DNA of 64,000 nucleotides from Planctomycetota bacterium (GCA_044222185.1 JBGANV010000007.1:160001-224000); one strand, 5' to 3'; shown: positions 17,056 to 35,943, counted from the first letter of the stretch. Translations and numbers: made by a program. Notes: generated by a model from the sequence alone, not told the origin.

Positions 17056-18506
17056 CGCGGGTGGCCGCATGCCGCGCCTTCATCGCGCTCGTCTTGACCT
17101 CGCTCCTGGCCGCGGCTCAGGATTCCAAGCCAGCGAAGGGGGAGCGCGTCCGCCTGGACGATGGCCGCGAGCTTGCCGGGCCGATCGCCGCGAATGACGG
17201 TCTCACGATCCGGGTTGGTGACGCCGTCGTCGACAAGTGGCAGGTGCGCGAGATCGAAGGCGGACCGACGCCCGTTCAGGCCGAGATCCTCCTCCAGCGT
17301 TTCCTCGACGAGCCGGACGAGGGACGCGCCATGCGGTTGTCGAGTCGGATCCTCGCGCTGCGAGACCTCGACTTCAGTACGCTCGTCGACCTGATGCGGC
17401 GAACGGGGATCCGGCCCCCGGTCGACCCGGGCCTCAGCACTCACAAACTCCTCGTGAAGGAAACCAAGGAGACGTTCGAGGTCACGCGGTACGTGCCCAG
17501 AGGCTTCGATGCCACGTCGGCCCGCCCCGTCTGGGTCACGATCCATGGGACCGGCGGACACGCGACGGACCCCGTTTCCATGATGCAGTCGCTCGCCGAC
17601 CGGTGGGGGTTTGCCGTCGCCGGGCTCACCGAGATTCCGCCGCGACAGGGGAAGGGCTGGGGCTCGCTTCCCGCGGAACGCATCTGCGAAGCGGCGCTCG
17701 TCCACGAACTCGTCCGGCAGCTGCGAGTCGACACGAACCGTGTCTACATCAACGGGTGGTCTCGCGGTGGACACGCCACCTGGGACATGGCGATGCACCA
17801 TCCCGATCTGTTCGCGGGCGCCGGGCCAGTGATCGGGTCCGTGCTGTCGCGCGATCGACACCTCCTGCCGAACGTGCGTCCCGTGCGCATCGACGCCACG
17901 AACGGTGCGAAAGACCAGCCTGGACTCGAGCGGGCCGCGAAGGCGGTCGCCGACGCGTTGTCCGCACCCGGATACGACTTCCGCTGGTACGAGGACCCGA
18001 ACGGCGGGCACGATCCGTTCCCGGAGCGGCTGCCGATCGTCGTCGAGCACCTCCTCGAGAAGGTTCGTGAACCCGATCCGAGGAAGGTCGAGTTCACCAG
18101 CTACGACGAGGAGGCGCGGCGCTGCTTCTGGCTGAAGATCGAGGCCGTCTCGGCGGATTCCTACGTGCGCGGCCGCAGCATTCCCGTTCTCGGAGCATCC
18201 AAGATGACGCCCGAGGAGGCGCACGCCGCGCTCGAGTCGGCGATCGCCCGCAACACCCCGCGCATCAGCGGCGAGGTCGACGGCGAGAATCGCGTGTCGA
18301 TCACGACGCACCTCGTCACGCGGTTGAAGGTCGGGCTGTCGCCCAAGCTCATCGACTTCCGCAAGCCCGTGACGTTGATCGTGAATGGCGACAAGCGCTG
18401 GACGAAGACGATCTCACCGTCGAAGGCCGTGCTGCTCGAGACCGCGCGCCGTAATCAGGATCGATTCTTCGGTTGGGGCGAAGTCCTCGACGTGGCCGTG
18501 CGTTGA
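17052..18506 (+). CDS. Secreted alpha/beta hydrolase (esterase/peptidase-like)
   Basis: Signal peptide; DTNRVY..GWSRGG nucleophile elbow, HPDLFAG, GGH; GTGA overlap with upstream gene. Confidence 0.8.
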   Translation: MTRVAACRAFIALVLTSLLAAAQDSKPAKGERVRLDDGRELAGPIAANDGLTIRVGDAVVDKWQVREIEGGPTPVQAEILLQRFLDEPDEGRAMRLSSRILALRDLDFSTLVDLMRRTGIRPPVDPGLSTHKLLVKETKETFEVTRYVPRGFDATSARPVWVTIHGTGGHATDPVSMMQSLADRWGFAVAGLTEIPPRQGKGWGSLPAERICEAALVHELVRQLRVDTNRVYINGWSRGGHATWDMAMHHPDLFAGAGPVIGSVLSRDRHLLPNVRPVRIDATNGAKDQPGLERAAKAVADALSAPGYDFRWYEDPNGGHDPFPERLPIVVEHLLEKVREPDPRKVEFTSYDEEARRCFWLKIEAVSADSYVRGRSIPVLGASKMTPEEAHAALESAIARNTPRISGEVDGENRVSITTHLVTRLKVGLSPKLIDFRKPVTLIVNGDKRWTKTISPSKAVLLETARRNQDRFFGWGEVLDVAVR

Positions 18507-18564
18507 GGGGGCGGCGGCGAGATGCCGCAGGACCAGCCATGGCTGCTACATTGCCGCCTCAACC

Positions 18565-19632
18565 ATGGACACGGCATCGCACGCTGAACCGACGCTCACG
18601 TTGCGGGAAACACGCGACCGACTGAAGGACCTCTTCACCCCGCGGGCGCTCGTGTACTGGACCGACCTTCTCGCGTCGGCGACGGTCGGGTGGGGCGGCT
18701 TCGCCGTCGCGATGCAGCAGGCTCCGTGGAGCGCCGCGCACGTCGTCGCCACCGTCGTCAGCGCGCTTGCGCTCTATCGCTCCGCCATGTTCATCCACGA
18801 GCTGACGCACCTTCCGAAGGGTTCGCTGCCGGGGTTCCACACGGTGTGGGACCTGCTCGTCGGCGTGCCGCTTCTCCTTCCGTCGTTCATGTATCTCGGC
18901 GTGCACCTCGATCATCACCGTCGCAACGTCTACGGCACGGCCGGCGATCCCGAGTATCTGCCGCTGGCCCGCAGCTCGCGTGTGAAGACGGTGTTGTTCC
19001 TCGTGCAGCCTGTGGTGATCCCGCTTCTGCTGCTCGCGCGGTTCGCCGTGCTCGCGCCGCTGTCGGTGTTGCTCGGGTCCAAGGTGCGCGAGCTCATCGT
19101 CACGCGGGCTTCGGCACTCGTGATCAACCCGGCCTACCGGCGGGATCTCCCGACGGGTGCTCTGCGGGGACGCTGGGTCGTGACGGAGCTGTTGGCGTCG
19201 GCGCTCGTGCTCGGACTTCTCGGCGCGATCGTCGCGGGGCTCGTGAGCTGGCGCGTGGCAGGCCAGTGGTATCTCGTGTCCGTCCTGGCGGCTTTCGTCA
19301 ACCAGCTTCGCACCGTGGGCGCTCATCGCTGGCGGAATGCGGGCGGAGAACTGGACGTCATCGCCCAACTCGTCGATTCGGTCAACACGCCAGGCGGCGC
19401 ATTGACGGAGATCTGGGCGCCTGTCGGGTTGCGCTGGCACGGGCTCCACCACTTCGTTCCCGACATGCCCTATCACTCGCTCGGCGCGGCGCACCGCCGT
19501 CTCGTCTCGAGCCTTCCTTCCGATTCGCCGTACTTTCAGACGGTATCACCCGGCATCTTCGCGAGCCTCGCCACGTTGTGGCGAGAGGCGGGCGAGGCCG
19601 GTGGTCGCGCCGTCGCGGAGCCGGGGCGCTGA
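18565..19632 (+). CDS. Fatty acid desaturase family membrane protein
   Basis: Three His boxes: HELTH, HLDHH, HGLHH..P; TM segments. Confidence 0.9.
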   Translation: MDTASHAEPTLTLRETRDRLKDLFTPRALVYWTDLLASATVGWGGFAVAMQQAPWSAAHVVATVVSALALYRSAMFIHELTHLPKGSLPGFHTVWDLLVGVPLLLPSFMYLGVHLDHHRRNVYGTAGDPEYLPLARSSRVKTVLFLVQPVVIPLLLLARFAVLAPLSVLLGSKVRELIVTRASALVINPAYRRDLPTGALRGRWVVTELLASALVLGLLGAIVAGLVSWRVAGQWYLVSVLAAFVNQLRTVGAHRWRNAGGELDVIAQLVDSVNTPGGALTEIWAPVGLRWHGLHHFVPDMPYHSLGAAHRRLVSSLPSDSPYFQTVSPGIFASLATLWREAGEAGGRAVAEPGR

Positions 19633-20459
19633 TGGCGGACGCGCTCAGTCGGTTGCTGCTCCGAAGCGTTCCGCCGTTCGACCTGCGCGATCTCGGCTCC
19701 GCGTCGCGACTGCTCGTGCCGAACGGCGCGGCGTTCGGAACCCCGCAACTCTGGCGCGGCGATGTGGCCTGGGATTGGGTGCGTCAGAAGCCTGATCACT
19801 ACTGGCTGAAGGGTGATCGCGGCAGCGCGCACTCGGGCGTCGACTTCGGGTTCTTCATCCGGCGCGGGCACGTCTACCCGCTCCCCGTCGGCTTGCCGGT
19901 GCGCGCGCCCGTTCGCGCGATCGTCGAGAACACGGGTCGCGATGCGGATCCAGAACGCGGCCCCGGCGGCGTCGTCCTCGGACTCGGGGACGAAGACGCG
20001 CCGCGCTTCTACGTTCACCTGACCGATTTCTGCGCCACGGTGCCTCACGGTGCTCACGTGCGTCCTGGCCAGATCCTCGGCCACACCGTTCCCTACTCGC
20101 GGCGCTTCCCCGTCGTCGTGATGCACATGGGGGTCGGCATCCTCCAGCCCGACGAACCACCCAATCCCATCGACCCTTCACCGCTCCTCCGCCGCTGGCG
20201 CGTCCGTCATCCGGTGACGCCCGGATCCACGTGCGATGCCTCGACGTTGAACCGGACGAGGTCCGGCACCTGGATGGCGCCCGGGAAGATCGCCGACCTC
20301 ACCGCCTGCGCCACGTGGGATGTTGGTCAATCGGGAGCGCGTCACGTTCAGGGCCTGGGCGTGTACCGACGCGCCCGCCAGGCCGGGCACGTAGGGGATT
20401 GGAAAGGCGATCGTGCTCGATCCCGGGTTTGCCGATCCGCTCGCACCGAGCACGCCTAA
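19632..20459 (+). CDS. M23 peptidase-like protein (degenerate HxH) whose last 45 codons appear foreign
   Basis: TGATG coupling to desaturase; HSGVDF, PVRAP, YVHL, V.PGQ.LG, MHMG, NPIDP; frame supported by synonymous-only divergence of the duplicate at 24646-24834. Confidence 0.7.
   Translation: MADALSRLLLRSVPPFDLRDLGSASRLLVPNGAAFGTPQLWRGDVAWDWVRQKPDHYWLKGDRGSAHSGVDFGFFIRRGHVYPLPVGLPVRAPVRAIVENTGRDADPERGPGGVVLGLGDEDAPRFYVHLTDFCATVPHGAHVRPGQILGHTVPYSRRFPVVVMHMGVGILQPDEPPNPIDPSPLLRRWRVRHPVTPGSTCDASTLNRTRSGTWMAPGKIADLTACATWDVGQSGARHVQGLGVYRRARQAGHVGDWKGDRARSRVCRSARTEHA
20134..20322 (+). repeat. Direct repeat copy 1 (3' part of the M23-like gene)
   Basis: Aligns without gaps to 24646-24834 (176/189 identical); 20182-20321 identical to 29089-29228. 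Confidence 0.97.
20322..20456 (-). pseudogene. Orphan 3' fragment of an FG-GAP-type surface protein gene
   Basis: Minus strand reads GVLGASGSANPGSSTIAFPIPYVPGLAGASVHAQALNVTRSRLTN, homologous to the end of the gene at 29206-31755. Confidence 0.85.
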
Positions 20460-20505
20460 GGCACACCCGCCCTTGTGTATTCCGTATGCGGCTTGAGGTC
20501 TAGAA

Positions 20506-22617
20506 TCACGGCGGGGCCGCGGTCTCGTCAGCCGGTCCGCCCTGCCAGTCGGCGGCGATCTCCGACCAGTCGATATCCCGCTCGACTGGCTGTCCCTTGT
20601 CATCCCTGCCAACCCAGACTTCCCAGAAGTCCGGATCGTCGGAGCGCGGCTGTTGCGACTTGGGCAGGTCGTTCATCTTTACCAGAACCGGCAGTTCCGA
20701 TGCCCACCCGAGCAGAATGGCGCTCTGGGAGGGCAGCGAGGGTAGCTCGCGAAGAAGCCCGCGAAGATTGTCCGGGACAAGCCGGTGGACGAGTTCCTGA
20801 TCGCGGTCGTTGCTGATCCGGTGAAGCAAGAAGGTGTTGCATTGCGAAAGCACCGTAGGTGAAAGCTCGGACGGGCGCTGAGACGAAAGCACCAGTCCAA
20901 GCCCGAACTTTCGCCCTTCACGAGCGATGCGCTCAAAGACCTGGCAGCAGATGCCTGCGGCGTCCTGATTCTCGACATCCTCCTTGTAGCGCTTGATGAA
21001 CGTGTGTGCCTCCTCCATCACGAGCACCGTGGGCAGCGCAGCGCCATTCGATTTCAAGTAGCGCTGCAGGGCCTCGAATACGATGCGAGCGATGACAGCG
21101 GCGACGACATGGACAATTTCGGTCGGAACAAGTGAGAGGTCTATTATCGATATGCAATCGTGCTCGGCGCCATCCACTCCGATGTAGTTGTTGAGCCACT
21201 TATGGAGCGTGACGTCCCCCGTATCCGCGATTATCGCGCTCATCTTCGGGTCAGATAGAAAGGCTCGAATGCGAGCAACCAGGAAATCGAGGAACGGGCT
21301 GACGTTCTCTTGCTCTGCGAGAACCTCAAGGTGATCAGCGAGGTCGGTGCCGATGAACGCCAGTGGAACGTCGTCGTCGGGGCCTTGTTGGTACACAATC
21401 CCACCCAGCGTAGTCAGGACGGCGTCAATCGCCACGTCGATCCTCTGGATCTCGTCGTTCGTGAATGCCACGAAATAGACGAAGCTCAGTTGTTTCTGCT
21501 TGTCGAAACCATCCTTGCGCTTGGCGTTGAGCGCGCTTCGGATTGCGCCTGCGACGTGGTCGAGCGAGCAATTGGGGCACTCCGACTTCCACCGATCCAG
21601 GTCCGAGACCACAGCCTCTAACTGGAAGCCGAACTTTGTCGGCTCCGCCTTTACAGCGTTCGAACGCAAGTCTCGCCGGATCGAAATCAGTGTGGACGAT
21701 AGATATCGGCGAAGGGCGAGCTTCTTCTCCTGGTCTGTGGGATCGGCAGCTGCAGTCCTCCCGGCTTTGACCTCGCGCAACGCCCGCCGAAGTAGCGGTC
21801 GTTGCGTTCTCGCACTCGCCTGCGTGAAGGAGCACCACTCCGCGCTGTTCCAGAACCACAGCGGCACCTTCAGTGCCTGTTCACCCTCGGCGGGGCTCAC
21901 CTTGAATATCCGTGCTTTGATCGGGTCGTCGCTGCTAAAGGCGCGTGAGTATTCGCCGTTAGGGTCCAGCACGACGAACCGAGCGTTGGGTCGCCCTCCT
22001 GGCCGTGCCCTTGCTGCCTGTTCGAGGCTCCAGCGGATCAGCCCGGCCACGGAGCATGACTTTCCGCTGCCAGTGTTCCCCAAAACGGCGAGGTGGCGCC
22101 CGAACAATCGGTTGGGGTCGACGGTGACCTCCGCATCGCCGGCGAGCGGGCTCGTGCCGATTTTGACCCTGCGTCGGTCGCCCGACTCAACGATCGATCG
22201 GAGCTGATTCGCTGTAGGTAGGACCACCGCAGCGCCGACCGATGGCAATGCAACGGCGCCTCTCTTGAAGGCATAATTCCCCCCTGGAGCGAGCCGGAGA
22301 AGCGTACCGAGCGGGTTGATCCGCAGTCGGCGGAGCGGATACGGCAGATCGACTAATCCGAAATCCTGCACCCCTCGTCGCTTCGGGAATGGCGATCGTT
22401 CGACAGTGAGCCACTCGACCTGCCCCACCAGGAAGGCTTCGTCCACCGCGACTAGGAGGTAACCGTTGACCCTGGGGAACGGTCGCGGTCCACCGGCAAT
22501 TAGGGCAACGGAGTCAGGCGCCTCAATGTCGAGGGTGACCTTGATCTCGTCCGGGGAGACGAAATCCACGGCGCCGATGCGCAGGCTGCCCGCTTGCTCG
22601 AATGGGGACTCGCTCAC
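20506..22617 (-). CDS. herA: HerA-like ATPase (HAS-barrel-like N-terminus, DUF87 type), partner of the SIR2 protein
   Basis: Walker A GNTGSGKS, Walker B VMEEAH, REGRKFG, SSQRPSE, LSQCNT; GTGA overlap with SIR2 stop. Confidence 0.92.
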   Translation of the reverse strand: MSESPFEQAGSLRIGAVDFVSPDEIKVTLDIEAPDSVALIAGGPRPFPRVNGYLLVAVDEAFLVGQVEWLTVERSPFPKRRGVQDFGLVDLPYPLRRLRINPLGTLLRLAPGGNYAFKRGAVALPSVGAAVVLPTANQLRSIVESGDRRRVKIGTSPLAGDAEVTVDPNRLFGRHLAVLGNTGSGKSCSVAGLIRWSLEQAARARPGGRPNARFVVLDPNGEYSRAFSSDDPIKARIFKVSPAEGEQALKVPLWFWNSAEWCSFTQASARTQRPLLRRALREVKAGRTAAADPTDQEKKLALRRYLSSTLISIRRDLRSNAVKAEPTKFGFQLEAVVSDLDRWKSECPNCSLDHVAGAIRSALNAKRKDGFDKQKQLSFVYFVAFTNDEIQRIDVAIDAVLTTLGGIVYQQGPDDDVPLAFIGTDLADHLEVLAEQENVSPFLDFLVARIRAFLSDPKMSAIIADTGDVTLHKWLNNYIGVDGAEHDCISIIDLSLVPTEIVHVVAAVIARIVFEALQRYLKSNGAALPTVLVMEEAHTFIKRYKEDVENQDAAGICCQVFERIAREGRKFGLGLVLSSQRPSELSPTVLSQCNTFLLHRISNDRDQELVHRLVPDNLRGLLRELPSLPSQSAILLGWASELPVLVKMNDLPKSQQPRSDDPDFWEVWVGRDDKGQPVERDIDWSEIAADWQGGPADETAAPP

Positions 22618-24047
22618 GATGTCGTGCCCGCCTGATCCGCCGGGAGAGAATCGGCGTTGCCGGCATCATTCGGCGCGGTGCCCCAGCGCGCCTTGAGCAG
22701 CTCCGCCATGCGCACGGTCGTCCGGTCGATCGCAGGCTTCGGCAAGTACTGGTCGACGAGGGTGCATAGATCGCCGAGGTGGTCTCCAATCAAGAGCGTG
22801 ATTTGTGCTTGTCGGCCCAGGCGCTCGTACGTGCGCACGATGCGTCCAAGAGGATCGCCATGCGAAATGACGACCAGGTGCGTGGACGGGATCGTCAGCA
22901 TGTCCTCGATCACTCGGTTGATGTGCTCGTCGCCGAAGCTGTAGCCGTAGCAGACGGCTGTGCTGTTCGGTCGGCAGATCGAGGCCGCGAAGTCCCGGAA
23001 CAATTCAACGTAGGGGTAAGCGGTCGTTTCGCGGTCCTTGGCGGCGTTGGGATAGATCATCAGGTGCGTCGCATCGACGCCACTCAGACCCGGAGCAGCC
23101 AGATAGGGTGCTGCGTCCCTGGCGCCAAATGGCAGGCCAATCCGCCGGATCGCCCCATCACAGTCCAGCCAATCGACAGATCCGTGGAGCTTGGTGAATC
23201 GCGCGACGCCTTCGAGGTAGCGCGGCTCTCCACGGATGCCGGGGGGATTGTAGTGGAGGTCAACATCCAAGCGCGACGCACGGAATACCGGTGCCAACGT
23301 GCCGACGAAGCGGTCAATGAGGCGCAGCCCCGCCGCATCAGCGCCCGCCTCGATGAGGCGGTCGTAGTTGGTTGTGAAGAGCTGTAAGCGCTCGCGTGTA
23401 CCAGTACGGCTGGCGAAGCTCATCAGGAAGCTGACGACGTAGTTGAACGCTTTCTCGCGTCTGTCAACGTTTGCTGTCGCGATGTCGTGTTCACCTCGCA
23501 AGATGGAGCTGGCGAACGTTTGAAGGACCTTATTCAGGCTCTCTCGCAATGCATCAACCCGCTTGCGCTCCGATGGTCGATCCGGCGTCGACGCTGCAAG
23601 GATCTCGAGGCCGCGAAGCAGTTCGTTGGCCACTCGGATCTGATCCTCGAGGTTTCCGGCCCTGCGCCCACTCCTCTCAGCCGTGCGCTTTGCCTCTTGT
23701 TTGATCTCGTCGGTCAGAACCGCGAACGGGACGGTCTCCAATCCGGGCAACGCCGCATTCCTCGCTATTTGGTGAACGGCGTGCGTCAGTCCCGAACCGA
23801 CGAGTAAGGAGAGGTTCTCGGACTGGACCAGGGCCGTCAGCCATGGCTCGATCCGAGGGCGCAACTTCTCGGGGCCGAAGGCCTCTGCAGGCTTGGCCCA
23901 AGAACACGTCGCGTCGACGGTCAATCGAAACGTGGCGGTTCCTGGCGCCGCTGATTCACGATTCAGAAGGACAGGAGCGTGGTCGTCGCGCGCCTTAAGT
24001 ATTTGCCCACCGGCATCCAGGTGCTTCCTCTGAAGTTCGACGGTCAT
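22614..24047 (-). CDS. SIR2-like domain protein (putative NADase effector)
   Basis: LLVGSG, FTTNYD, KLHGSVDW, IYP...K, GYSFGDEHIN. Confidence 0.9.
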   Translation of the reverse strand: MTVELQRKHLDAGGQILKARDDHAPVLLNRESAAPGTATFRLTVDATCSWAKPAEAFGPEKLRPRIEPWLTALVQSENLSLLVGSGLTHAVHQIARNAALPGLETVPFAVLTDEIKQEAKRTAERSGRRAGNLEDQIRVANELLRGLEILAASTPDRPSERKRVDALRESLNKVLQTFASSILRGEHDIATANVDRREKAFNYVVSFLMSFASRTGTRERLQLFTTNYDRLIEAGADAAGLRLIDRFVGTLAPVFRASRLDVDLHYNPPGIRGEPRYLEGVARFTKLHGSVDWLDCDGAIRRIGLPFGARDAAPYLAAPGLSGVDATHLMIYPNAAKDRETTAYPYVELFRDFAASICRPNSTAVCYGYSFGDEHINRVIEDMLTIPSTHLVVISHGDPLGRIVRTYERLGRQAQITLLIGDHLGDLCTLVDQYLPKPAIDRTTVRMAELLKARWGTAPNDAGNADSLPADQAGTTS

Positions 24048-24155
24048 TGCTTCTCTCCGCCGATGACGCCCGTGGGCGAACCCGCAGTCTTCTTCGCGGT
24101 CGCGAGGAGGTTGGCGACCCGCTCGGCTTCGTTGGCATTCATTTCTTCGACCGCT

Positions 24156-24645
24156 GGGACAGACCGATCGCTCGTGGAATTCGGCGGCTCGGGTGGCTGC
24201 TGATCAGACTATGCGACCGCCTCCATTTTGTCGAGGTTCCGAACAGGTTCGACCAGTGCCGGCATGTACTCGTGGCAGATGACGCGACGGAGCCTCGCCC
24301 TGGCGTGGGGGCGGATCGCGGTGGCTCCCCTCATCGCCATCTTGGCACTCGACCACCGCATCACACTCCGGCACAGGTCGCGCGTCCCGGCGAAGATGCT
24401 CTCGATCGCGTGCGTGCTCAGGAGGACGTGGCGGAGTTCATCGGCAACCTGGAGCCGGTGATTCGCGACCGATAATTCGAGGCACTCCTTGAGGCTTCCA
24501 GGCGCGCCGGGGCTCATGTCGTTGAGCTTCGACGCGCGCTGCGCGAGCGCCTTCCCGGCGGCGCCGCACGGCTTCATGCCCGAGGCGGCACGGAGGGCCC
24601 GGCGGATCGTTCCCTGGTCGTTCTCGAGACGGCGCGAGCGTGCGT
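24156..24645 (-). mobile_element. Degenerate IS256-family remnant (3' part of transposase and probable terminal sequence)
   Basis: PGAPGSLKECLE...LRHVLLSTHAIES...VMRW...LRRV resembles the IS256 transposase C-terminus (PGAAASLREGLE...TTNPIES...VKRW); stop at 24209; end position is approximate. Confidence 0.75.
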
Positions 24646-24860
24646 TCGGCATTCTCCAACCCGACGAACCGCCCAATCCCATCGACCCGTCACCGCTCTT
24701 GCGTCGCTGGCGCGTGCGCCATCCGGTGACGCCCGGATCCACGTGCGATGCCTCGACGTTGAATCGGACGAGGTCCGGCACCTGGATGGCGCCCGGGAAG
24801 ATCGCTGACCTCACCGCATGTGCCACGTGGGATGCGCGGTGGGTCGACGTCTTCGACTGA
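24646..24860 (+). repeat. Direct repeat copy 2: synonymously diverged 3' end of the M23-like gene with probable native stop
   Basis: Same 62 residues as copy 1, then ARWVDVFD-TGA (24858-24860). Confidence 0.95.
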
Positions 24861-25074
24861 CGGTGGGCCCGCTCTCGCGCGGATCTCCTCGATTGACGCA
24901 GCGGCGGGGGGCGATGCGACGGGGACGGCTGGTGAGCAGGCGGCGAGCGGCGCGTGCACGGATGGGGCACCGACCCACCAGCGGGCGCGCCCTTCGACGC
25001 AACGCTCGCCGGAGCGTGCGGTCGCAACCCCCTTGACCGATCCGACGAGGCCCGCGCAGCACCGCACAGCAGAT

Positions 25075-25118
25075 CCTCGCTCGGCTACCTGCCCGGGAGG
25101 CTCGTGGCTGGAGCGAGG
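25075..25118. terminator. Imperfect hairpin between convergent gene ends
   Basis: CCTCGCTC pairs with GAGCGAGG, plus GGCTAC/GTGGCT with G-U pairs; no U-tract. Confidence 0.35.
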
Positions 25119-25165
25119 GCCGGCTCGGTCGCGGCGAGGCGTCGCGAGCGCGCCGGGGGTGCCGC

Positions 25166-28100
25166 TCAAAGCACGAGGAAGAGGACCTCTTGTGGCTGAA
25201 GTGTCGTGTTTTGAAGCGCCCCGTACGTGGTCGCGACGCCGTTCGAGATGGCGTTGCGGTACACCGTGACGGCCGTCCCTGGCGCGATCGTGACGCCACC
25301 AATCTGTGTCGGCAGCGTCACCGCGACCGATTGGTTGCTGTTCCAGGCATTTGCGACGAGGAGTCCCGTGGATGTCGAGAGCTTCCACGCCGAATGCCAC
25401 GCGACGGGGACCGTGACCAAGAATGGCGGCCCACCTACCTCCTTGTAGGTGGCACTTGTCACGCACGAGAACCCGTTAGTCGTCTGCATGACGCCGTCAT
25501 TCAGGAAGTTCCGCGCGGGTCCCTGTCCGGTCCGCACACAGTTGATGAGAAACGCCAGGGGTACGGGATCCGAGCGCTGCGGCGTCGGGAGCATCGCCAG
25601 GGTTGTGACGCCGAGCGCGCACGCTCCACCCTGGCCGCCCTGCGATGTCGGAGCGAGGTACTCCGCAGCGAGCATCCATTCGATGAGACCGTATGCCTCC
25701 CACGCCCCCGACGTGAGCGTCTTCGCCAACGCGACGAGCCAGCTCTGCACCTGGCGATCGCGCTCTGATTGGCCCATGCCGGGATATGTCGTCGGCACTC
25801 TGATGTCCCAGACCATGGAGCGCACGATTTCGGAGTACACGAACTGAAAGGCCGGCACGACCTCGCTCCCCGGAACTCCCGGCGCCGGCCACCCGCTGAC
25901 GGCGCTGGACCTGATCCCCTGGACGGCGACGGTTCCGATCGACAGCTCGCACGGGTCCTCGATGGCCATCTCGAAGTTCGGGTTGCCGGCCTTTCCTGCC
26001 GCCAGCGTCGAGTTGAACAGGTTCTTGAGCGCGTCGGCTTTCCAACGACCGTTGCCGATCGGATGCCCCGAGGTCGGATCGAAGTTGTCGTAGACCGTCC
26101 CGCCATTCATCTGATCGAACAGGTAGAGATCGACCGCCGATGCCTGGTTGTTGTCCGCTGCCATGCGGGCCGCCGCCTCCTGGTGACGCGCGACGGTGAA
26201 CGGCTTGGACGGGTCCATCAGGTAGTGGTTGGAGGTCCACGGGATGAGATCGAGGTCCTGATCCCGATGGAAGTAGTTCCCGAACCGGTCTACGCAGGCG
26301 ATGCCCTGCCACGGAGGCGGATCGCTGGTCACGCCTGCATACCCTGGAACCCAGAAGTCGTAGTTTCCTGGTGGGCAGCCCGGAGTGATTTCGGTTCGGG
26401 TCACGGCCCAGTTCAGACCGGCGATCATGGCTGCCGCGCGGTTGCCCGTTCCGTGGAGTCCGCTCCAGCACGACAGGATCGCCTGCTCGGAGTGGATCGC
26501 GGGGTAAGGACCGCCGGGCGAGCTCGGCGTGCCAATCACGTTCAGCGGCACGTAGTACGGGCCGATGTACGTCCCGTTCTTCTCGAACCCCCGGAACATC
26601 CCCATCATTTCGCCGTTCACCCCGCCCGGGGAGGCGAGTGCCTGTTGCCAGGCGGACAGTACCGTCGCCCACGATTCAATGGGCGCAATCTCGCCTCCGA
26701 AGCCCCGCGGCTGGAGGTCCGCCTCGAATATGGTCGGACGGGTCCGCGTCCAGGCGGCCGGCGTCCGGGCCGCCGCAGCGCTCCACCACGGCTGTTGCCG
26801 TGCCCACGATCGGTACGTCTCTGCGGCGGCCATCCAGCTCCCGACGCAGGGGTGAATGACCGTCTTGTACGCCGGAACGGCGACGTTCGCCTCGCTGGGA
26901 ACGTTCTGCGAGATGCTCAACCGCACGACCTGGTTCGCGGCGTCCCAGTTCGTCGCGACTGTTTTCGCCTCACCAAACGGGTCGTGGGCCGCGATTCCCA
27001 GCCCGCGAACGCCATCGTAGACCGCAGCGAACTGCATGGCTGCCAGGCCTGGGTATTCGACCGTGCCTTCCCAGTCCCCGTAGGGATGGCCCGCGTCGAT
27101 GTTCCTGGGGTTCACGACGTACCCCCCGCCCCGCGGGTTGAAGATGCGGAGTTCGCGCGCCGCGTCGGAGAGCGGCGCGTTGACCTGGAGATCCGGGCAA
27201 GTGATCCGTTCGAGGATCACGGCCGGCGATGGCGTCACCGACGGTTTGAAAGCGATCTCCGTGTTCGATGGCCCCGGAACCGTCGGTTCGGAGGAGATTT
27301 CCACCATCATCCCGAGCGTGGGCGGCAGTCCAGACTTGGCGGTTGCTCGGATTCCCTCCACGGTGCCCTCGACGAAAGGCGTCACGTCGAAGGCTGCGCC
27401 GTCGCTGGTCGAGGACGAAGGGTTTTGGTCGCTCACCGCGTTGCGGCGCGAGAGTGTGTAGAGGGGCGACCCACCGGCCTTGAGCAGGTTCTCGCCGACG
27501 GGGGTCCTGTTTCCATCGACGTTGCGAACTTCCATGAGCCGGCCGCGGGACGCATCGAACATCACGGAGAGCGCCGTGCTCTTGACCTCGTAGCAGATGG
27601 GCGTCTCGAGGGTGCCGAATTCGGCGTCCGTTCCCGTGAAGTCCACGTTGTCGACATAGAGCCGGACGCCGGGCGCGTTGGCGCATTCGACGAGCAGTCG
27701 CACCCTCTCGGCCTCCGGGCCGACGGTGTAGGACACGGTGAATTCCTGCCAGTTTTCCGCGCGTGGGACCTGAGTCGACGTCGAACCGCTGGCGATGCTC
27801 CAGGTGGGTTTGAACCCCGCCGCATGGAGAGTCACGACGGCGTTCGGCGATGCCGCCTGCGGCAGGTAGAGGATGCGGACCTTCGCCCGAAGGGTTTTGT
27901 TCATCATCGCCGCCGTCACCTTCCACTCCTTGGCCAAGTGGTAAAGCGTGTTTCCCGCGGCGACGTCGATGCGACACGACGTGCTTCCACAGTTGACGAG
28001 GCCTGCCGCCGGCTCCGGCTCGACCATGTCGGATGGCCAGTTCACCGTCCAGTTCTCGGGGACCATGCTCGACCCTTGCTGGTACCAGCGCTCGAAGTTC

Positions 28101-28171
28101 GAGTTGAGGAGATTCTGCGCATTGAGGCTGCCGAGGACGGCGAGGAGAACGACTGCGCATCGGCGTTTCAT
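25166..28171 (-). CDS. Secreted protein with N-terminal CBM-like jelly roll and DUF6259-like (putative glycoside hydrolase) region
   Basis: Signal peptide, SD GGAAGG; N.NFE.W...PENW and LYVDNV; YPG...MQF.A.YD...GL...AHDP.G..K; LFDQ; VPAFQFVY. Confidence 0.7.
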   Translation of the reverse strand: MKRRCAVVLLAVLGSLNAQNLLNSNFERWYQQGSSMVPENWTVNWPSDMVEPEPAAGLVNCGSTSCRIDVAAGNTLYHLAKEWKVTAAMMNKTLRAKVRILYLPQAASPNAVVTLHAAGFKPTWSIASGSTSTQVPRAENWQEFTVSYTVGPEAERVRLLVECANAPGVRLYVDNVDFTGTDAEFGTLETPICYEVKSTALSVMFDASRGRLMEVRNVDGNRTPVGENLLKAGGSPLYTLSRRNAVSDQNPSSSTSDGAAFDVTPFVEGTVEGIRATAKSGLPPTLGMMVEISSEPTVPGPSNTEIAFKPSVTPSPAVILERITCPDLQVNAPLSDAARELRIFNPRGGGYVVNPRNIDAGHPYGDWEGTVEYPGLAAMQFAAVYDGVRGLGIAAHDPFGEAKTVATNWDAANQVVRLSISQNVPSEANVAVPAYKTVIHPCVGSWMAAAETYRSWARQQPWWSAAAARTPAAWTRTRPTIFEADLQPRGFGGEIAPIESWATVLSAWQQALASPGGVNGEMMGMFRGFEKNGTYIGPYYVPLNVIGTPSSPGGPYPAIHSEQAILSCWSGLHGTGNRAAAMIAGLNWAVTRTEITPGCPPGNYDFWVPGYAGVTSDPPPWQGIACVDRFGNYFHRDQDLDLIPWTSNHYLMDPSKPFTVARHQEAAARMAADNNQASAVDLYLFDQMNGGTVYDNFDPTSGHPIGNGRWKADALKNLFNSTLAAGKAGNPNFEMAIEDPCELSIGTVAVQGIRSSAVSGWPAPGVPGSEVVPAFQFVYSEIVRSMVWDIRVPTTYPGMGQSERDRQVQSWLVALAKTLTSGAWEAYGLIEWMLAAEYLAPTSQGGQGGACALGVTTLAMLPTPQRSDPVPLAFLINCVRTGQGPARNFLNDGVMQTTNGFSCVTSATYKEVGGPPFLVTVPVAWHSAWKLSTSTGLLVANAWNSNQSVAVTLPTQIGGVTIAPGTAVTVYRNAISNGVATTYGALQNTTLQPQEVLFLVL

Positions 28172-28366
28172 GGTGGTCCTTCCCGTGGCTCTTGTGGCGG
28201 GTCGACCATGAAGAGTCCATTTCGACGCGCGATGTCACGCGCGCACTCGAAAATTCGAGCGCACGGGCACTCACGGTCGCTTCTCGCGGCGGCAAGAGGA
28301 GAGGCGGCCGACCGCGGGGCGTCGCCGGCGGCGGGGCTCGCACACCGCCCGCTCGCCAGCGAGCCG

Positions 28367-29088
28367 TCAGGGTCTCAGGGTCGCCCGATAGAGATTCGTG
28401 GTACTTCCCACAGCCGGGTTCGACGTGGACACCGTGAGTGTCTGGATCCCTGCGGCGAATCCGAGGAGCCCCGGGTTCTGCGGGATCGTGATGGGGAGCG
28501 CCGTGCCGGTTGGCAGCGTCGCCACGCGATGGGCGAGAGCCCGACGAGCGCCACGCCGAAGTTCCCGATCGGGATCGAGCCGTCGAGGGCGCCGATCACG
28601 TAGACGGACATCCCCGGCACACCGTTGATGACGTCGAACGTCAGCGTCGCGCCGAGACGCGGTGCGCCCGTCACGCTCATGAACCAGATCGGCCGCTCGA
28701 ACGCACCCATCTCGGCGGAAGCGGTTCCGCTCAACGTGGAATCGATGATGCGAGGCTACTCGTCCCAATCCTTCGCGACGAGCGTCGCGAGCGACGCATC
28801 CGCTGTCCCGATGCACGGCGACGTCGCCGCGAGGTGAAGGTGACCCAGCGACGCCGCAATGACCTGTGGATCGACGTCGATGTTTCCGCGGAAGCCCGGA
28901 TACGCGCCATCGGAGTTGAAGACGCGGATGCCAGGAACGGCACCCAGGTTGGTCACGTTGCCCCACAGGATCGAGTTGCGGATCGAGCCCGACCAGCCCG
29001 TGCCCGACAGCCCGACGTGGCACCCCGTGACGGTCGCGTGAACGATGTCGAAGCTGCCACTGGTGAGCCGGATGCCGTCCCTGGCGCA
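28367..29088 (-). pseudogene. Decayed 3' fragment of a paralog/allele of the beta-helix gene at 32079-35762
   Basis: Colinear with 32079 to about 32800; in-frame TAG at 28756-28758 where the intact gene has CAG; 1-bp deletion near 28525; 5' end cut by repeat copy 3. Confidence 0.92.
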
Positions 29089-29228
29089 CGCTCCTCCGCC
29101 GCTGGCGCGTCCGTCATCCGGTGACGCCCGGATCCACGTGCGATGCCTCGACGTTGAACCGGACGAGGTCCGGCACCTGGATGGCGCCCGGGAAGATCGC
29201 CGACCTCACCGCCTGCGCCACGTGGGAT
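29089..29228 (+). repeat. Direct repeat copy 3 (140 bp, identical to 20182-20321)
   Basis: Base-by-base comparison shows no mismatch. Confidence 0.97.
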
Positions 29229-31755
29229 CCTGCGCGTGAACGAAGATGCCCGCGATTCCCGGCACGTAGGGAACCGGGAACGTGATCGTGCTCGCTCCCG
29301 GGTTTGCCGATCCGCTCGCACCGAGCACGCCCGAGCCGGCGAGCGCCGCGGTCGTCGGATCGATGAACACGGTGCCGAACGGTGGGGCCTGGATCTGGGC
29401 CGCCCCGAGGGAGAAGTAGAGGTTCCACTGGTCGCCCGGCGCGCCGAGCACGTCGAGTTTGAGTGACCCTCCCGGCCTGGGGAACGTGTTGACCGCCAGC
29501 TGCCGCGTGCAGTTCGTGATGAACATCGGGCCTGGCGAGATGATGTCGATGTCCTGGTCTCGATCGAAGTCGGCGAAGGCCGAGTATTCGGTCCAGCCGA
29601 TGCTGTAAGGCGACGCCGACATGGGAGCACCGGCCGTGAAGGTGCCGGCCCCGTTGTTGATGAAGATCGTCGCGCCGTCGAGGATCAGATCCAGGTCGCC
29701 GTCGTTGTCGAGGTCGCAGAGCTGCGGGGTCTGGCCCTGGTAGAGCTGGCCGATCGGCAAGGGCGGGCCGGGCGTGAATTGGCCCGCTCCGTTCCCGAAA
29801 TACACGACGGCATCGACGATCACGTCTGCGAGCCCGTCGCCGTTCAAGTCACCTGCGACGGCCGTGTAGCCCGTGATCGGCGTCGCCACCGCATTGAACG
29901 TCGCCGGACCCGTCCGGAGGTACACGTAGCTCTGCGCCGGGAAGTTGACCGGAGCGACGGCGAGAAACGAGTTGAGCTGCCAGATGTCCATGAGGCCGTC
30001 GCCGTTCACGTCGGTGATACACAGCGCTGTGGTGTTCCCTGGGGGGCCGAGCCGTTGTGGGACGCCGAAACCAGCCGAGCCGTTGTTCAGCATGATCTCC
30101 GTCGAGAACGAGCGCAGATTCGGAAACGCGATTGGCGACGCGATGATGTCCACGTCTCCATCCCCATCGACGTCGGTGGTCGCGACCAACGCACGACCCA
30201 GCGCCGCGGGGTTGATGACGGTGGAGGTGAAGGACGTTCCATTGTTGATCATGAGCACGTCTGGCCCCGTGAGCCATGGGAACGTCGGCTGGTAGGGAAC
30301 GAGTACGTCCGAGTCTCCGTCGCCGTCTGCGTCGAAGACGCCGACGCTGATGAAGCTCATCTGAATTGGCTGGGGAAGGGCGATACTCGGACCGGGAGTG
30401 AAGTAGCCGTCACCGTCGTTGCGACCGGTGACGAGTAGCTGGGGCGCGATGAAACGGAGTCCGAACAAATCCGGAATTCCGTCTTGATCGACGTTTCCGA
30501 CGAACACGTTCGTCAAGTCTCCCAGCCCACCGAGCGGCTGCGGGAACGGTGCTATCTGGCCCGTTCCGGAATTGAACAGCACCGCGGGGGTGTAGTCGGG
30601 CGCAAGGGCACATACGACGTCCTTGTCGCCGTCACCGTCGACGTCGGACTTGAACGCCCGCGGTGCCCCGCTCAGGAGGCTCGCGCTGAGGAAGCCCGTG
30701 AGCACTTGGGCTACGGCTGCGAAATTCCCGTTGGGCAGCATCGGATGCACTTCGATGCTCGGAGTGACGTAGCGGTCGCCGAAGACGAGGATGTCATCTC
30801 GCTGGTCCGAGTTGACATCGAGAGCGACGATGTGTTCCGCAGGGCCCAGCTCGATCGATGGGCCATACACAGGGCTGGTCAACGGCCCGTAGATCAACGT
30901 GGCCGGGCCTCCCGCCTGGGACCAGGAATTCACGCGCTCCGCGATGATGAGGTCGGGAAACACGTCGTTATTGAAATTGCCCAGGGTCGCGGACCAGATG
31001 GGCGCAGCCCCTGTCCCAGGGATGGGAGTCAGCGAGAACGAACCCGCCGTGTTGATCGCGATCACTGCCGCAGTGCCGCCTTGGACGTCGCGGGGCGAGA
31101 ATAGGATGTCGAGGTCGCCGTCGTTGTCGAGATCGCTGAGCGCGATCCGGCCCGTGGGGAGTCCCGTTTGCGGCAGCCCGGTCGGGCTCGCGACGAACGT
31201 CGTTGGCCCGACGTTCAGCCAGACGGCGCCTCGCCCCGGCACCGGGCCGACGGCTGGGAGGTATTGCTCCGTCGTCATCACCAGGTCTGGGCGGCCGTCA
31301 CCGTTGACGTCGCCGGCGGCCAACGTCACTGCCCCGGCTCCGAAGCTGGGGTAGAGCGCCGGCAACGGCGGGGTGGTCGCCGATGTCGTGTCGTAGGCGA
31401 ACCCGGGCGACGCATACGCGACGACGACTCCGTTGCCGAGTTGCGGAATCGCGGCGAGATCCATGAGCCCGTCGCCGTTGAAGTCGGCAGCAACCACCGA
31501 TTTGGGTCGTAGGAACGGTGGCGCGATGCAGGGACGCCTGAAATGCCCCGTGCCGTCTCCGAGGAGGATCTCCGTTTCCGTCACGAGGTCGATCGTTCCG
31601 TTGCCGTCGAGGTCCGCCGCGCAATAGACCCCCTCCGCGATGGCCGGCATCGGCCGCTCCACGATGCGGTAGATCGGCGCCTGTCCCATGCCCATCGCCG
31701 TCGCCAGCGATCCCACCCCCCACACGATCCCTGCGAACCAGTTTCGAGTCGCCAT
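29206..31755 (-). CDS. Secreted FG-GAP/VCBS repeat protein with C-terminus clipped by repeat copy 3
   Basis: Many D.[DN]GDG..D repeats; SD GGAGGG before ATG 31755; last residues DPTWRRR come from the antisense of the repeat. Confidence 0.88.
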   Translation of the reverse strand: MATRNWFAGIVWGVGSLATAMGMGQAPIYRIVERPMPAIAEGVYCAADLDGNGTIDLVTETEILLGDGTGHFRRPCIAPPFLRPKSVVAADFNGDGLMDLAAIPQLGNGVVVAYASPGFAYDTTSATTPPLPALYPSFGAGAVTLAAGDVNGDGRPDLVMTTEQYLPAVGPVPGRGAVWLNVGPTTFVASPTGLPQTGLPTGRIALSDLDNDGDLDILFSPRDVQGGTAAVIAINTAGSFSLTPIPGTGAAPIWSATLGNFNNDVFPDLIIAERVNSWSQAGGPATLIYGPLTSPVYGPSIELGPAEHIVALDVNSDQRDDILVFGDRYVTPSIEVHPMLPNGNFAAVAQVLTGFLSASLLSGAPRAFKSDVDGDGDKDVVCALAPDYTPAVLFNSGTGQIAPFPQPLGGLGDLTNVFVGNVDQDGIPDLFGLRFIAPQLLVTGRNDGDGYFTPGPSIALPQPIQMSFISVGVFDADGDGDSDVLVPYQPTFPWLTGPDVLMINNGTSFTSTVINPAALGRALVATTDVDGDGDVDIIASPIAFPNLRSFSTEIMLNNGSAGFGVPQRLGPPGNTTALCITDVNGDGLMDIWQLNSFLAVAPVNFPAQSYVYLRTGPATFNAVATPITGYTAVAGDLNGDGLADVIVDAVVYFGNGAGQFTPGPPLPIGQLYQGQTPQLCDLDNDGDLDLILDGATIFINNGAGTFTAGAPMSASPYSIGWTEYSAFADFDRDQDIDIISPGPMFITNCTRQLAVNTFPRPGGSLKLDVLGAPGDQWNLYFSLGAAQIQAPPFGTVFIDPTTAALAGSGVLGASGSANPGASTITFPVPYVPGIAGIFVHAQDPTWRRR

Positions 31756-32001
31756 GTGCCCTCCGTCGTTCTCGTCGCGAAACCCTCCGAGCGATCGAGC
31801 CTTCATCGAATCGAGGAATGCCAGCGCGGTGCCCGCGCGTGCGCTCGCATCCCATCGGGCCGCAGCTCCGAGTTGAAGGCGCCCGCGAGGCAGGCGTCGT
31901 TCGTCGTGAGTACGCGTGAGGACTGCGCGACGTTCAGGCCGAATTGCCGAGCAAATTCGCACTCTCGATCGTGCGACTCTGCGCGCGCTGCTCGCGATGT
32001 T

Positions 32002-32078: not shown

Positions 32079-35000
32079 TCAAGGCCGGATGATCGCCCGA
32101 TAGAGATTCGTGGTGCTGCCGAGAGTCGGGTTCGATGCAGTGACCGTCAGCGTCTGGATTCCTGCTGCGAACCCGAGCAGCGCGGGGTTCTGTGGAATCG
32201 TGATCGCGAGCGGTGTCCCAGTCGGCAGCACCGCGAGCGCGATGGGAGAGAGTCCGACGAGCGCCATGCCGAACGTCGAGATCGGAAACTCTCCGTCGAG
32301 CGCACCGAGCACGTACACGGACGTGCCAGGAACACCGTTGATGACGTTGAACGTCAGCGTTGCGCCCGGGCGCGGCGCTCCCGTGACGGTCATGAACCAG
32401 ATGGGACGCTCGAACGCGCCCATCTCCGGCGAAGCAGTCCCACCGAGAGTCGAGTCGATCATGCGCGACTGTTCGTCCCAGTCCTTTGCGACGACCGACG
32501 CGACGGCGAAGTCCGCGGTGCCGATGCACGGCGACGTGGCGTCGAGGTGCAGATTGCCGAGCGATGCCGCGAGGAACTGCGGGTCCGAGTCGATGTTCCC
32601 GTTGACGCCAGGATAGGCGCCATCGGAATGGAACACTCGATTGCCCGGAACGCTGTCGAGATTCGTGACGTTGCCCCAGACGATCGAGTTTCGAACGGAG
32701 CCCGACCAACCGTTGCCCGCCAGGCCGACGTGGCACCCCGTGACGGTCGCGTGCGCGACGTCGAAGGTCCCGGCAGAGAGCCGGATGCCGTGGCTCGCGC
32801 AGGCCCGCGCGACCCAGTTCACCCCGGCGCCGGCCAATGCCGTGGCGCCGATGCCTCCAGCGAACGAGCGCTCCACGCGGACCGCTCGGGCGGAGACCTG
32901 TGGCGATTGGATCGAAAGCCCGTCCACGAGGCCGCCGCCGCAGTTTCGGACGATGACGTTCTCGATCGACGAAGCCGCCGCGCCGGCGTGGTAGACGATT
33001 CCGCTCCATTGACCGGCGATGCCGGTCGTCGGCCCACCACCTTCGGAGTCGCCCCCGAACGTGTCGTCGTCGTGCGACGTGAACACGACGGGCTCGTATC
33101 CCGTCCCGCGGATGTCGAGGGAGCCGTCGACGGTCACGCTCTGCGACCAGTCCCTGAACTTGATCACCGTGCCGGGGAGGATGTCGACGCTTCGCCCCGC
33201 CGGCACGACGAACGACGTGAAGAACGTGATCGCCATCCCGGCCTGGGGGCCGATGACGAGGTCCGTCGACGCCGTCCCCGCGACCACGCGAATCGTGTCT
33301 GAGTGATTCCCCGAGGCGTAGGTGTTTGCGATGCCTGGCAGGGCGTCGACGGGCACTTCGTCGACTGCGTATCCGCCGTTGTCGGTGATGTGGCACTCGA
33401 CGACCTGGGGCCGCGAGTTCGGGTTCGTGAACTTCAGTCCCGCGGAGTAGCCGTCGCGAAAGGTGCTCGCATACAACGTCGGGTTGCTTCCGTCGAAGGC
33501 GACGCACGGCTCGAGGCCGTAGCCGGTGAAACGCACCGTCGTCTCCGTGATCAGGCTCGCGGATGCGCCGGCTCCGAGGACGAGACCGCGCCAGTCGCCG
33601 GATTGCCCGACCGTGGGGCCATTGCCGTTCGTATCGCCGCCGACGGAGTCGTCCCGGTACGACGTGAAGCACACCGGGGCGGCACCAGTCCCCTGAGACA
33701 TCAGCGTCCCTGAGACCTGAACGCTCGAGGCGCTCCCGAGCTTGACGACCGTTCCCGCGTGGAGTGTGAGGGTCTTGCCGGTTGGAACCGTGAGCGTGCC
33801 GTTCACGAGGATCGCACCACTGATCCCGTTGGCGGGATCGAGCGTGAGGGCCGTCGCCGCGACGGTGCCGTTCGTGACGCGGACGGCGTTGAAGCCGCAA
33901 CCGGACGCAATGTTGCCGTTCAGCGACGCACAGGCATCGATGCTCGCGTTGTTGATCGCCGTGCCCCCGCAACCCACGATCTGGCACCCGGTGATCGTCG
34001 CGCCGCTCGTCGGAGACAGGCCGGTGGCGTTGAGGTTGATCCCGTCATAGGCGGCGCTGACGACTCGGCACCCATCGAGCGTGATGTTCGCCGCTTGGAG
34101 ATCGAGCGCCGCGAGGCCGGTTCCGCCCGCGAATCGGATCTCGAGTCCGTGGACGACGCTCGCCGCGGAAGTCGGCAGGAAGGTGACGCCGCTCCAACGA
34201 CCTTGCGCACCGGTCGACGGCCCGTTGTTGTTGGTGTCCCCAAAGGCCGAGTCGTCCTGGATGCTCGTGAGAATCGCAGGCGATCCGCTCGAGCCGTTGA
34301 CCAGCAGCGTCCCGAAGCACTGGAACGCGCTTCCCGGTTGGAACTTGATGCACGTTCCCGCAGCGAGCGTGAGCGCCACGCCCGCGGGAATGGCGAGGTT
34401 CGTCGCGGCGACGAGCGCGCCGTTGAGGCAGTTCGCCGGTGTGATCACCCTGCTGGCGGGCAGCGTGTTCGTCGTGATCCGGACGTAGTTGCCCGTGTTC
34501 CCCGTGGCCGTGTTGTTCGAGAGCCCGCTTACGGCACCGAGCGCCACGCCATGGATGGCCGTCCCACCGCAACTCGTGATCGTGCACCCCGTGATGGTCG
34601 GGAAGCTCGTCCCCGAGAGGTCGATGCCGTTGCTGTACGAGGATTCGACGCGGCAGGAGGAGAGTGTGGGATTGCAGCCGGAGAGCGAGATCCCCGCCGT
34701 GAGCGAACCTCCCGAGTATCGGACGACGAGCCCGGTGAGACTGCTCGCCGACGCGTTGGTGCTCAGGTTGACGCCCACCCATTGACCCGGTGTCCCGCTC
34801 GACGGGCCGTTGTTGTTCGTGTCTCCGGCGACGGCGTCGTCGGTGAGCGACGTGAATACGACCGGGGCTGCGGTCGTTCCGTTGGTGACGAGTGCGCCAT
34901 CGACGTTGACGGCAGAGCTGGGTGCCATCTTCAGGATCGTGCCGGCTTGCAACGTGAGGGAACGGGCCGCGGGGACCGTCATGGTGCCAGCGACGACGAG

Positions 35001-35762: not shown

Positions 35763-35943
35763 GGTGTTTCCCTCGGTGAAAGTGGGGCGAGCGTCCATAT
35801 CGGGGTGGAAGCGTCGCCCGCCGAGGGGAAGTGACACGGGTCATCCGCCAGCACGCGGATTCTGCGCGACTACACCAAGTCTCGGTTGCGGCGAGAGTTG
35901 CAGCAGCGCGCCGAGCCAGGCCAAGCCCGCGCGAACCCCCACA

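Follow-up and report, generated by a model that had tools for sequence, protein, structure and literature searches.

Phage 21 and e14 (in icd) and SXT (in prfC) integrate at the 3′ end of a protein-coding gene and bring a replacement end with them. Two other kinds of locus are arrays built by recombination, namely the "C-terminal displacement" arrays of Rhs genes (Jackson et al. 2009, PMC2935791) and the effector-immunity arrays of type VI secretion systems (T6SS), formed via homology-facilitated illegitimate recombination (Kirchberger et al. 2017, PMC5361080). Core defence hotspots between conserved genes were described by Johnson et al. (2023, PMC10250203), who proposed homologous recombination of the flanks as a means of transfer; by what route defence systems come to chromosomal hotspots without a recognisable mobile element stands there as an open question. 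The SIR2-HerA (Nezha) anti-phage system is known from structures (PDB 8j4u, 8su9 and others) and from published accounts (PMC11514289 and PMC11472057). The locus described here lies in a stretch of 64,000 nucleotides of a Planctomycetota bacterium (GCA_044222185.1, JBGANV010000007.1:160001-224000), referred to as the window, in which a SIR2-HerA gene pair is bracketed by two direct repeats, copies A and B, of the 3′ segment of an M23-peptidase-like gene, the host gene. We favour, with about evenly balanced confidence, the explanation that DNA of a related lineage was inserted here, anchored by homology, and left the bracket as its scar (3′-end displacement, or homology-facilitated illegitimate recombination). 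On this reading, recombination built an accessory region where the M23-like gene and a HEAT-repeat gene converge, and the SIR2-HerA pair is cargo within it. The features of the bracket are as follows.

18385..19632, plus strand: fatty-acid desaturase gene (Pfam FA_desaturase, E 1.2e-22)
19632..20459, plus strand: host gene, degenerate and M23-peptidase-like, with a natural part at 19632-20321 (230 codons) and then a foreign tail of 45 codons
20134-20322, plus strand: repeat copy A, host-gene codons ~168-230, joined to the 5′ part of the gene
20322..20456, minus strand: FG-GAP gene stub, ~45 codons near the C-terminus (GVLGAS...VHAQALNVTRSRLTN), without about the last 10 codons, antisense to the host-gene tail
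20506..22617, minus strand: HerA ATPase, 703 amino acids, apparently intact (PADLOC, Pfam DUF87, PDB chains of SIR2-HerA)
22614..24047, minus strand: SIR2-family NADase, 477 amino acids (PADLOC, Pfam SIR2_2, PDB 8j4u_A)
24209..24645, minus strand: 3′ fragment (about the last third) of an IS256-family transposase gene (NCBIfam NF033543 and tblastn)
24646-24834, plus strand: repeat copy B, with the natural last 8 codons and stop at 24835-24860 (whole 24646-24860), an orphaned 3′ end of the host gene without a 5′ part

Copies A and B are ungapped direct repeats of 189 nucleotides at a spacing of 4512, are 93% identical and form the only long repeat family that the repeat search reported within 18-27 kb (blastn E 3e-76; longest identical run 44 nucleotides). 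They differ by 13 substitutions, 9 of which are transitions. Twelve are located at third codon positions of the plus-strand frame that continues the gene started at 19632, and the remaining one is at the first position of one of the same codons, a Leu codon (CTC/TTG). In total 12 codons are changed with no amino-acid change over 62 codons; in the other five reading frames the same substitutions would change 4-13 amino acids. When 13 substitutions were placed at random, keeping the observed mix of transitions and transversions, none of 200,000 placements left the protein unchanged (the minimum, 1 change, was reached once). The proportion of synonymous differences (pS) is 0.27 and the synonymous divergence (dS) ~0.34, over 47.8 synonymous sites. 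As the copies differ only synonymously, both evolved within functional genes of separate lineages before sharing a molecule. On this substitution pattern, we take A and B to be allelic versions of a single gene segment, separated under purifying selection, and hence one copy to have come from a related lineage, with or beside the cargo. The apparent recoding is simple allelic divergence rather than deliberate recoding.

Relatives of the host gene place its natural end on copy B. Fifteen were found among 5.8 billion proteins, with a typical length of 238 amino acids; the best (P0003, on a 948-bp contig) is 93% identical. The Peptidase_M23 domain (PF01551) is carried by 13 of the 15, and its match in the host gene of the window is weak (E 0.002). 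All 11 homologues that were aligned terminate as x[R/E]WxD[V]xx right after the position equivalent to ATWD, and none has the 45-codon tail found behind copy A. In the host gene with copy A, 45 foreign codons thus replace the natural last 8. The 230 codons up to 20321 and the 8 codons after copy B add up to 238, so copy B carries the natural end. A scan of species-representative genomes gave four related loci (L001-L004), all in metagenome-assembled genomes (MAGs) of Planctomycetota, at 57-61% protein identity. The M23-like frame is full-length in all four, and L001 and L004 read through to the natural end.

The M23-like family is rare, and the desaturase and M23-like genes form a conserved, translationally coupled pair in these loci, the desaturase gene lying upstream of the host-gene homologue in 4/4. 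In the window, the ATG of the host gene at 19632 overlaps the TGA of the desaturase gene (ATGA, 19630-19634). A long open reading frame (ORF) at 18690-20459 is mostly out of frame with the desaturase gene.

At the left junction, the tail behind copy A reads GVLGASGSANPGSSTIAFPIPYVPGLAGASVHAQALNVTRSRLTN on the minus strand and aligns to the C-termini of FG-GAP proteins (11 C-termini, from the FG-GAP gene of the window itself and 10 homologues), showing that copy A is joined to an FG-GAP stub. The homologues are 831-867 amino acids long and have the natural end ...RLTNRLxxTVxG[FY]. The DNA of the SIR2-HerA pair starts only at ~20457. At the right junction, copy B abuts an IS256-family remnant. 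The assignment is based on a weak NCBIfam match (NF033543, E 7e-4, model positions 229-333 of 338, 18.7 bits against a cut-off of 150) and on tblastn to annotated transposases, with matches in 41 plasmid records (best E 5e-11) to genes annotated as IS256 family transposase; Pfam gave no match for 24209-24700 on the minus strand even at E 10. The fragment breaks at 24645/24646, the exact start of copy B, and this is an arbitrary breakpoint within the transposase gene, neither an end of the insertion sequence (IS) nor an attachment (att) site. No complete transposase and no second copy of the IS were found in the 64-kb window, no terminal inverted repeats were identified, and the repeat listing has no inverted repeats linking 20323-20500 to 24048-24208. 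No integrase or recombinase domain of Pfam was found in 47 ORFs scanned in the window, a set selected by us from which small or degraded genes could escape.

An earlier note, made from the sequence of this DNA, had described the 189-bp repeats, whose 13 substitutions lie in 12 codons and change no amino acid over 62 codons, and had given the natural end to the downstream copy only. The repeat search and codon comparison bear out the first, and the homologue alignment the second, with ARWVDVFD-stop on B alone. The tail after copy A is foreign to the gene; it is not random, being the antisense of an FG-GAP stub. The note was right that no integrase is present among the scanned ORFs and missed the mobile-element remnant, the truncated IS256 transposase at copy B, as well as a further repeat copy (C, below).

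The bracket is part of a larger accessory region. In L002, L003 and L004 (3/4 loci, tblastn), a HEAT-repeat gene follows directly after the host-gene homologue, convergent with it and abutting it or overlapping it by 4 nucleotides. As the two genes abut in these relatives, the stretch between them in the window, 20323-35943 (15,621 nucleotides), is lineage-specific. The islet between A and B that the note described is only one piece of this 15.6-kb stretch. All genes of the region are on the minus strand, and its pieces include two gene stubs and a pseudogene. Beyond the bracket it holds, up to and including the right-hand flank, the following.

25166..28171, minus strand: gene of a DUF6259-domain protein, 1001 amino acids, convergent with the orphaned end B (Pfam DUF6259, E 7.9e-14; codon-phase GC profile)
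28370..29088, minus strand: H′, a 5′-truncated beta-helix pseudogene with an in-frame TAG at ~28756 and a 1-nucleotide deletion at ~28524 (alignment, translation)
29089..29228, plus strand: repeat copy C, 140 nucleotides (blastn of the region against the window)
29206..31962, minus strand: FG-GAP repeat protein gene (Pfam FG-GAP_3, E 4.5e-67; the database gene call on the contig has 849 amino acids)
32079..35837, minus strand: H, beta-helix protein gene, 1252 amino acids, intact paralogue of H′ (Pfam Beta_helix, E 7.2e-19)
35944..37047, minus strand: HEAT-repeat gene, the right-hand conserved flank (Pfam HEAT_2)

Copy C, which may be an assembly artefact (see below), is identical to 20182-20321 of copy A at all 140 positions and differs from B at 9 sites. 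The FG-GAP gene lacks about the last 21 codons of its family and ends within the antisense of copy C (…VHAQ-DPTWRRR-stop). The tails behind A and C (the latter at 29229-29331) match at 85 of 103 bases (82.5%), with 46/47 in the far part and 39/56 in the near part; the mismatches fall 5/2/11 by codon position, and the copy A side has 34 extra bases. The junction of host-gene codon 230 with an FG-GAP 3′ region is thus present in two diverged versions, 8.9 kb apart. With two such versions, the junction looks older than the arrival of the islet, which would leave the junction of the IS with codon 168 as the one made at that arrival. The sequence upstream of B and of C is unrelated to the host gene; their left boundaries are at host-gene codons ~168 and ~184 and lie within the transposase gene and a beta-helix gene, respectively.

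Both host-gene/FG-GAP junctions are located within 1 nucleotide of each other, right behind the 8-bp palindrome CCACGTGG (20316-20323, 24828-24835 and 29222-29229). Their position beside the palindrome could be chance, or the palindrome could be a fragile or recombination-prone site. We also considered that removal of copy C would rejoin the FG-GAP gene with the beta-helix fragment; this was rejected, because FG-GAP homologues end ~21 residues past the break and the fragment is a paralogue of H.

The layout resembles the Rhs and T6SS arrays in three respects. A full gene is followed by start-less direct repeats of its 3′ core with varying length (189, 189 and 140 nucleotides here), a different sequence stands behind each repeat (FG-GAP stub behind A; natural end and DUF6259 gene behind B; FG-GAP gene behind C, with the reservation on C given above), and the incoming DNA is of different composition, without a dedicated recombinase, the incumbent end being displaced downstream. 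In contrast to those arrays, the host gene is a conserved M23-like protein of 238 amino acids with one conserved end and not a polymorphic toxin (no toxin or immunity domains were found in the Pfam and PADLOC scans), and the "tips" are the natural 8 residues or junk read-through instead of alternative functional domains. The cargo here is a defence pair with surface-protein genes, it is the attached copy that is damaged, and the order comes from one locus and not from a population series. With phage 21, e14 and SXT, the locus shares a diverged, mostly synonymous duplicate of a 3′ segment that brackets foreign DNA, with the original end on the far side; it differs from them in having no integrase in the scanned ORFs, no natural end on the attached copy and breakpoints inside other genes. 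The analogy with a recoded replacement 3′ end, which the note had drawn from these elements, does not fit, since the gene is not restored by the copy attached to it and no integrase occurs in the scanned ORFs. The locus may also be a core hotspot: as in those, variable, partly defence-related DNA lies between two conserved flanks without an obvious mobile element, and the flanks abut in three of four relatives and stand 15.6 kb apart here. Unlike those hotspots, this is the sole occupied site seen, and the greater part of the 15.6 kb (FG-GAP, beta-helix, DUF6259) has no recognisable link to defence.

In the insertion that we favour, the DNA of a related lineage would already have carried, in this order, an M23-like gene cut short at codon 230, an FG-GAP stub, HerA, SIR2 and IS256. 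A single homologous crossover, within the M23-like gene or upstream of it, would have joined this DNA to the resident chromosome at one end; at the other, an illegitimate join would have run from inside the IS256 transposase gene to resident codon 168. The resident 3′ end (copy B and ARWVDVFD-stop, with the DUF6259 gene) would thereby have been displaced 4.5 kb downstream and orphaned, and the incoming allele, copy A, would now be on the expressed gene with a junk tail. What we infer is that B is the resident copy and A the incoming one, that the illegitimate join was one-sided, and in which order the events took place. As we read it, the insertion was not mediated by an integrase, none being present in the 47 ORFs scanned. 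Capture from a related strain, anchored by homology, had also been proposed in the note, and it is the best explanation here as well.

The defence system and the recombination processes (at Rhs and T6SS loci) are known, and the informative part is the scar, a variant of displacement-type recombination. The scar is legible: synonymously diverged alleles bracket the cargo, one breakpoint is inside an IS and the other in the stub of a neighbouring gene. It points to recombination with the DNA of relatives, anchored on a flanking gene, as a delivery route for defence genes, and it offers concrete junctions that can be sought in reads. A non-exhaustive literature search gave, among the matches listed, no pertinent title on defence systems bracketed by gene-fragment repeats via illegitimate recombination.

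Several observations weigh against this explanation. There is no sister genome among the loci found, the four relatives having only 57-61% protein identity. The codon-230/FG-GAP junction has to pre-exist in the donor, and its two versions, 100% identical in the repeat and 82.5% in the tail with a 34-nucleotide indel, do not fit a single ancestry cleanly. The GC content at third codon positions (GC3) is 0.859 for H′ and 0.817 for H, and 0.778 for B and 0.841 for A; B, the DUF6259 gene and H′ were considered as one foreign block, with which these values are inconsistent. Third-position divergence between H′ and H (110/254) is about twice that between A and B (12/62), so the pieces may differ in history. 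All of the window belongs to a single contig of 307 kb, which is represented once in the protein collection, and the linkage of the junctions is as assembled. Finally, integration of a circle by a single crossover yields the same end state, and the two models are not separable here.

This last model, of the Campbell type, would have a circle of ~4.5 kb (189 nucleotides of the M23-like gene, the FG-GAP stub, HerA, SIR2 and the truncated IS256), excised for example from a relative through recombination of repeats, integrate by one crossover within the 189-nucleotide segment and so duplicate it. The layout would be exactly as observed, with the left copy on the resident 5′ part and the right copy on the resident 3′ end, and the repeats would permit re-excision as a 4512-bp circle. 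Circular intermediates have been proposed for the Rhs tip arrays (PMC2935791). We nevertheless regard the model as unlikely. The substrate is poor, only 189 nucleotides at 93% with no identical run beyond the 44 nucleotides given above, and the 4.3 kb carried no replication or transfer function in the Pfam, NCBIfam and PADLOC scans. The illegitimate junction of the IS with codon 168 must also pre-exist in the circle, so the model is no more economical than the one-sided join.

It is rather improbable that strain variants were strung together by the assembler. Taken strongly, this explanation makes the A/B bracket itself a chimera. A weaker version confines the artefact to copy C and the join at 29088/29089; two haplotypes would then coexist, one with the islet, stub B, the DUF6259 gene and H′ and the other with the FG-GAP gene, H and the HEAT gene. 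Copy C is what raises the concern. It is exactly 140 nucleotides long, is identical to A and stops exactly where A and C start to differ, as a contig forking off a shared path would begin. This length equals k-1 at k = 141, which we take to be the highest value that one common metagenome assembler uses by default. A fork in the contig, placed in series at 29088/29089, could therefore account for the join, and two haplotypes would then coexist. Both diverged versions of H′/H and of the tails of A and C stand in series, as in false haplotype duplication, every related genome is a MAG, and the contig has been seen a single time. The A/B pair is unaffected by this concern because its copies differ at 13 of 189 positions, which a de Bruijn graph would not merge. 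The junctions 20322/3, 20456/7 and 24645/6 join unrelated sequences, and each must exist in real reads. No further repeat of this kind was found in the 64-kb window, and a contig join without Ns would be unusual. If copy C is a contig fork, islet-bearing and islet-free haplotypes would coexist in one population.

The other route suggested in the note was an integrase acting in trans. The islet would then be a decayed integrative element that has the 3′ end of the M23-like gene as its target and brings along a target copy of its own, as phage 21 and e14 do in icd. Direct repeats of the 3′ segment at both ends with a displaced original end would suit such an element, three copies can be read as tandem accretion at one att site, and both FG-GAP junctions lie at the same host-gene position, within 1 nucleotide, behind the CCACGTGG palindrome. 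Against these points, none of the 47 ORFs has an integrase, attached copy A does not restore the gene end, the left boundaries of B and C (codons ~168 and ~184) are arbitrary breakpoints with no common core, and the second unit carries host-like genes and a paralogous pseudogene. The suggestion is weakened to the point of being very improbable. That IS256 transposition (of a composite or one-ended transposon) brought SIR2-HerA, the repeats being incidental, is hardly credible: the transposase remnant is directly upstream of SIR2 in the same orientation and a related pair on a Xanthomonas plasmid has one IS element beside it and another that may interrupt it, but transposition duplicates a few target bases (8-9 bp for IS256) and not 189 nucleotides with 7% divergence, and the one IS256 copy is truncated, with neither a second copy in the window nor terminal inverted repeats identified.

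Returning to the homology-anchored insertion, its repeats bear on how the islet could be lost. RecA-type recombination between A and B could possibly delete 4512 bp and restore the natural gene of 238 amino acids. The gain/loss switch proposed in the note is thus possible at the sequence level; what limits it is the 93% identity of A and B and their short identical runs. Recombination between A and C, if copy C is real, would have 140 identical bases and be readier than that between A and B; it would delete 8907 nucleotides and would not restore the natural end. In a broader scheme, which we consider doubtful, the 3′ segment of the M23-like gene would serve as a recurrent dock, capturing integrase-free cassettes (the defence pair, the surface-protein genes) successively from the DNA of related strains or from excised circles, each arrival displacing the previous end and loss occurring by recombination of the repeats. 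If true, the locus would be an Rhs-like tip-displacement array on a housekeeping-type gene, shuttling anti-phage genes within a planctomycete population.

The cargo itself is an ordinary, horizontally acquired and apparently intact SIR2-HerA system, and it is predicted to be an abortive-infection system of a known kind that depletes NAD+. The SIR2 and HerA genes are adjacent and co-oriented and overlap by 4 nucleotides. HerA matches PADLOC model PDLC04098 (E 8e-257) with residues 4-692 on positions 3-684 of 686, and SIR2 matches PDLC04079 (E 5.6e-155) with residues 60-458 on positions 33-417 of 430. The NCBIfam anti-phage models match below their curated equivalog cut-offs (HerA 212.7 against 850 bits, SIR2 124.4 against 500). 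HerA has a Walker A motif (GNTGSGKS at 180) and a Walker B motif (VLVMEE at 531), and SIR2 has TTNYD at 225 and GDEHI at 372; the residues of the Walker motifs and of the NAD-binding and His motifs are presumably those with the catalytic role. The SIR2 motifs align with the same motifs of 8j4u_A (E 3.8e-20), with GD.HIN conserved, and HerA matches chains of solved SIR2-HerA complexes. The pair is like Nezha in having two overlapping genes, SIR2 then HerA, with full-length PADLOC matches and the Walker A and SIR2 motifs; compared with that system, nothing in the proteins of the window is notable. HerA has its nearest relatives at 79-80% identity; the few that are named stand lower, at 72-76%, and belong to several phyla. 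GC content falls to 0.57-0.63 across SIR2-HerA, and GC3 is 0.73 for both genes as compared to 0.82-0.88 for neighbouring genes. This foreign composition counts in favour of the homology-anchored insertion. No match to the 4.3-kb islet was found in the phage collection. A promoter and terminator scan of 20100-25300 gave no promoter-like sites and 4 terminator-like sites (3.7 expected).

A 32-codon ORF (24044-24142, minus strand; MNANEAERVANLLATAKK...) is located between the IS256 remnant and SIR2, its TGA overlapping the ATG of SIR2 (ATGA). Plasmid-borne SIR2-HerA pairs have 68-70% DNA identity to the pair of the window. The closest is on the Xanthomonas plasmid NZ_CP018464.1, for which the annotation table has no HerA gene; an IS5-like element lies inside the stretch that matches HerA of the window, so that the gene may be interrupted, and an IS3-like element flanks SIR2. 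This plasmid shows that such pairs are often located among IS elements.

In the rest of the accessory region, H′ resembles the 3′ end of H and is located 3.7 kb from it (blastn, 28381-29091 against 32093-32804, 78.5% over 713 nucleotides; mismatches 45/28/110 by codon position). Gene H contains internal direct repeats of 40-105 nucleotides, 80-85% identical, at 34205-35456, presumably repeated protein modules. Searches of L001-L004 at E 1e-5 or 1e-8 gave no match to the DUF6259, FG-GAP and beta-helix genes. No tRNA or tmRNA was found in the window, and Rfam gave no match for 18000-37000. Beyond the HEAT gene, L002 and L004 continue with SIS, cyclophilin, SpoU, Trp-dioxygenase and RlmL-like genes, and the L003 stretch stops at the SIS gene; in the window, SpoU and Trp-dioxygenase genes come after the HEAT gene. 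L004 (CAMARR010000011.1) is labelled Candidatus Kuenenia stuttgartiensis, with 61% GC and a gene order as in the other planctomycete MAG loci; we take Kuenenia to be much lower in GC, and the contig may be mis-binned. Further along the window, a DUF5131 protein gene (48436-49224, plus strand; Pfam E 5e-97), a family that we take to be phage-associated (Gp37/Gp68), is located amid ordinary chromosomal genes.

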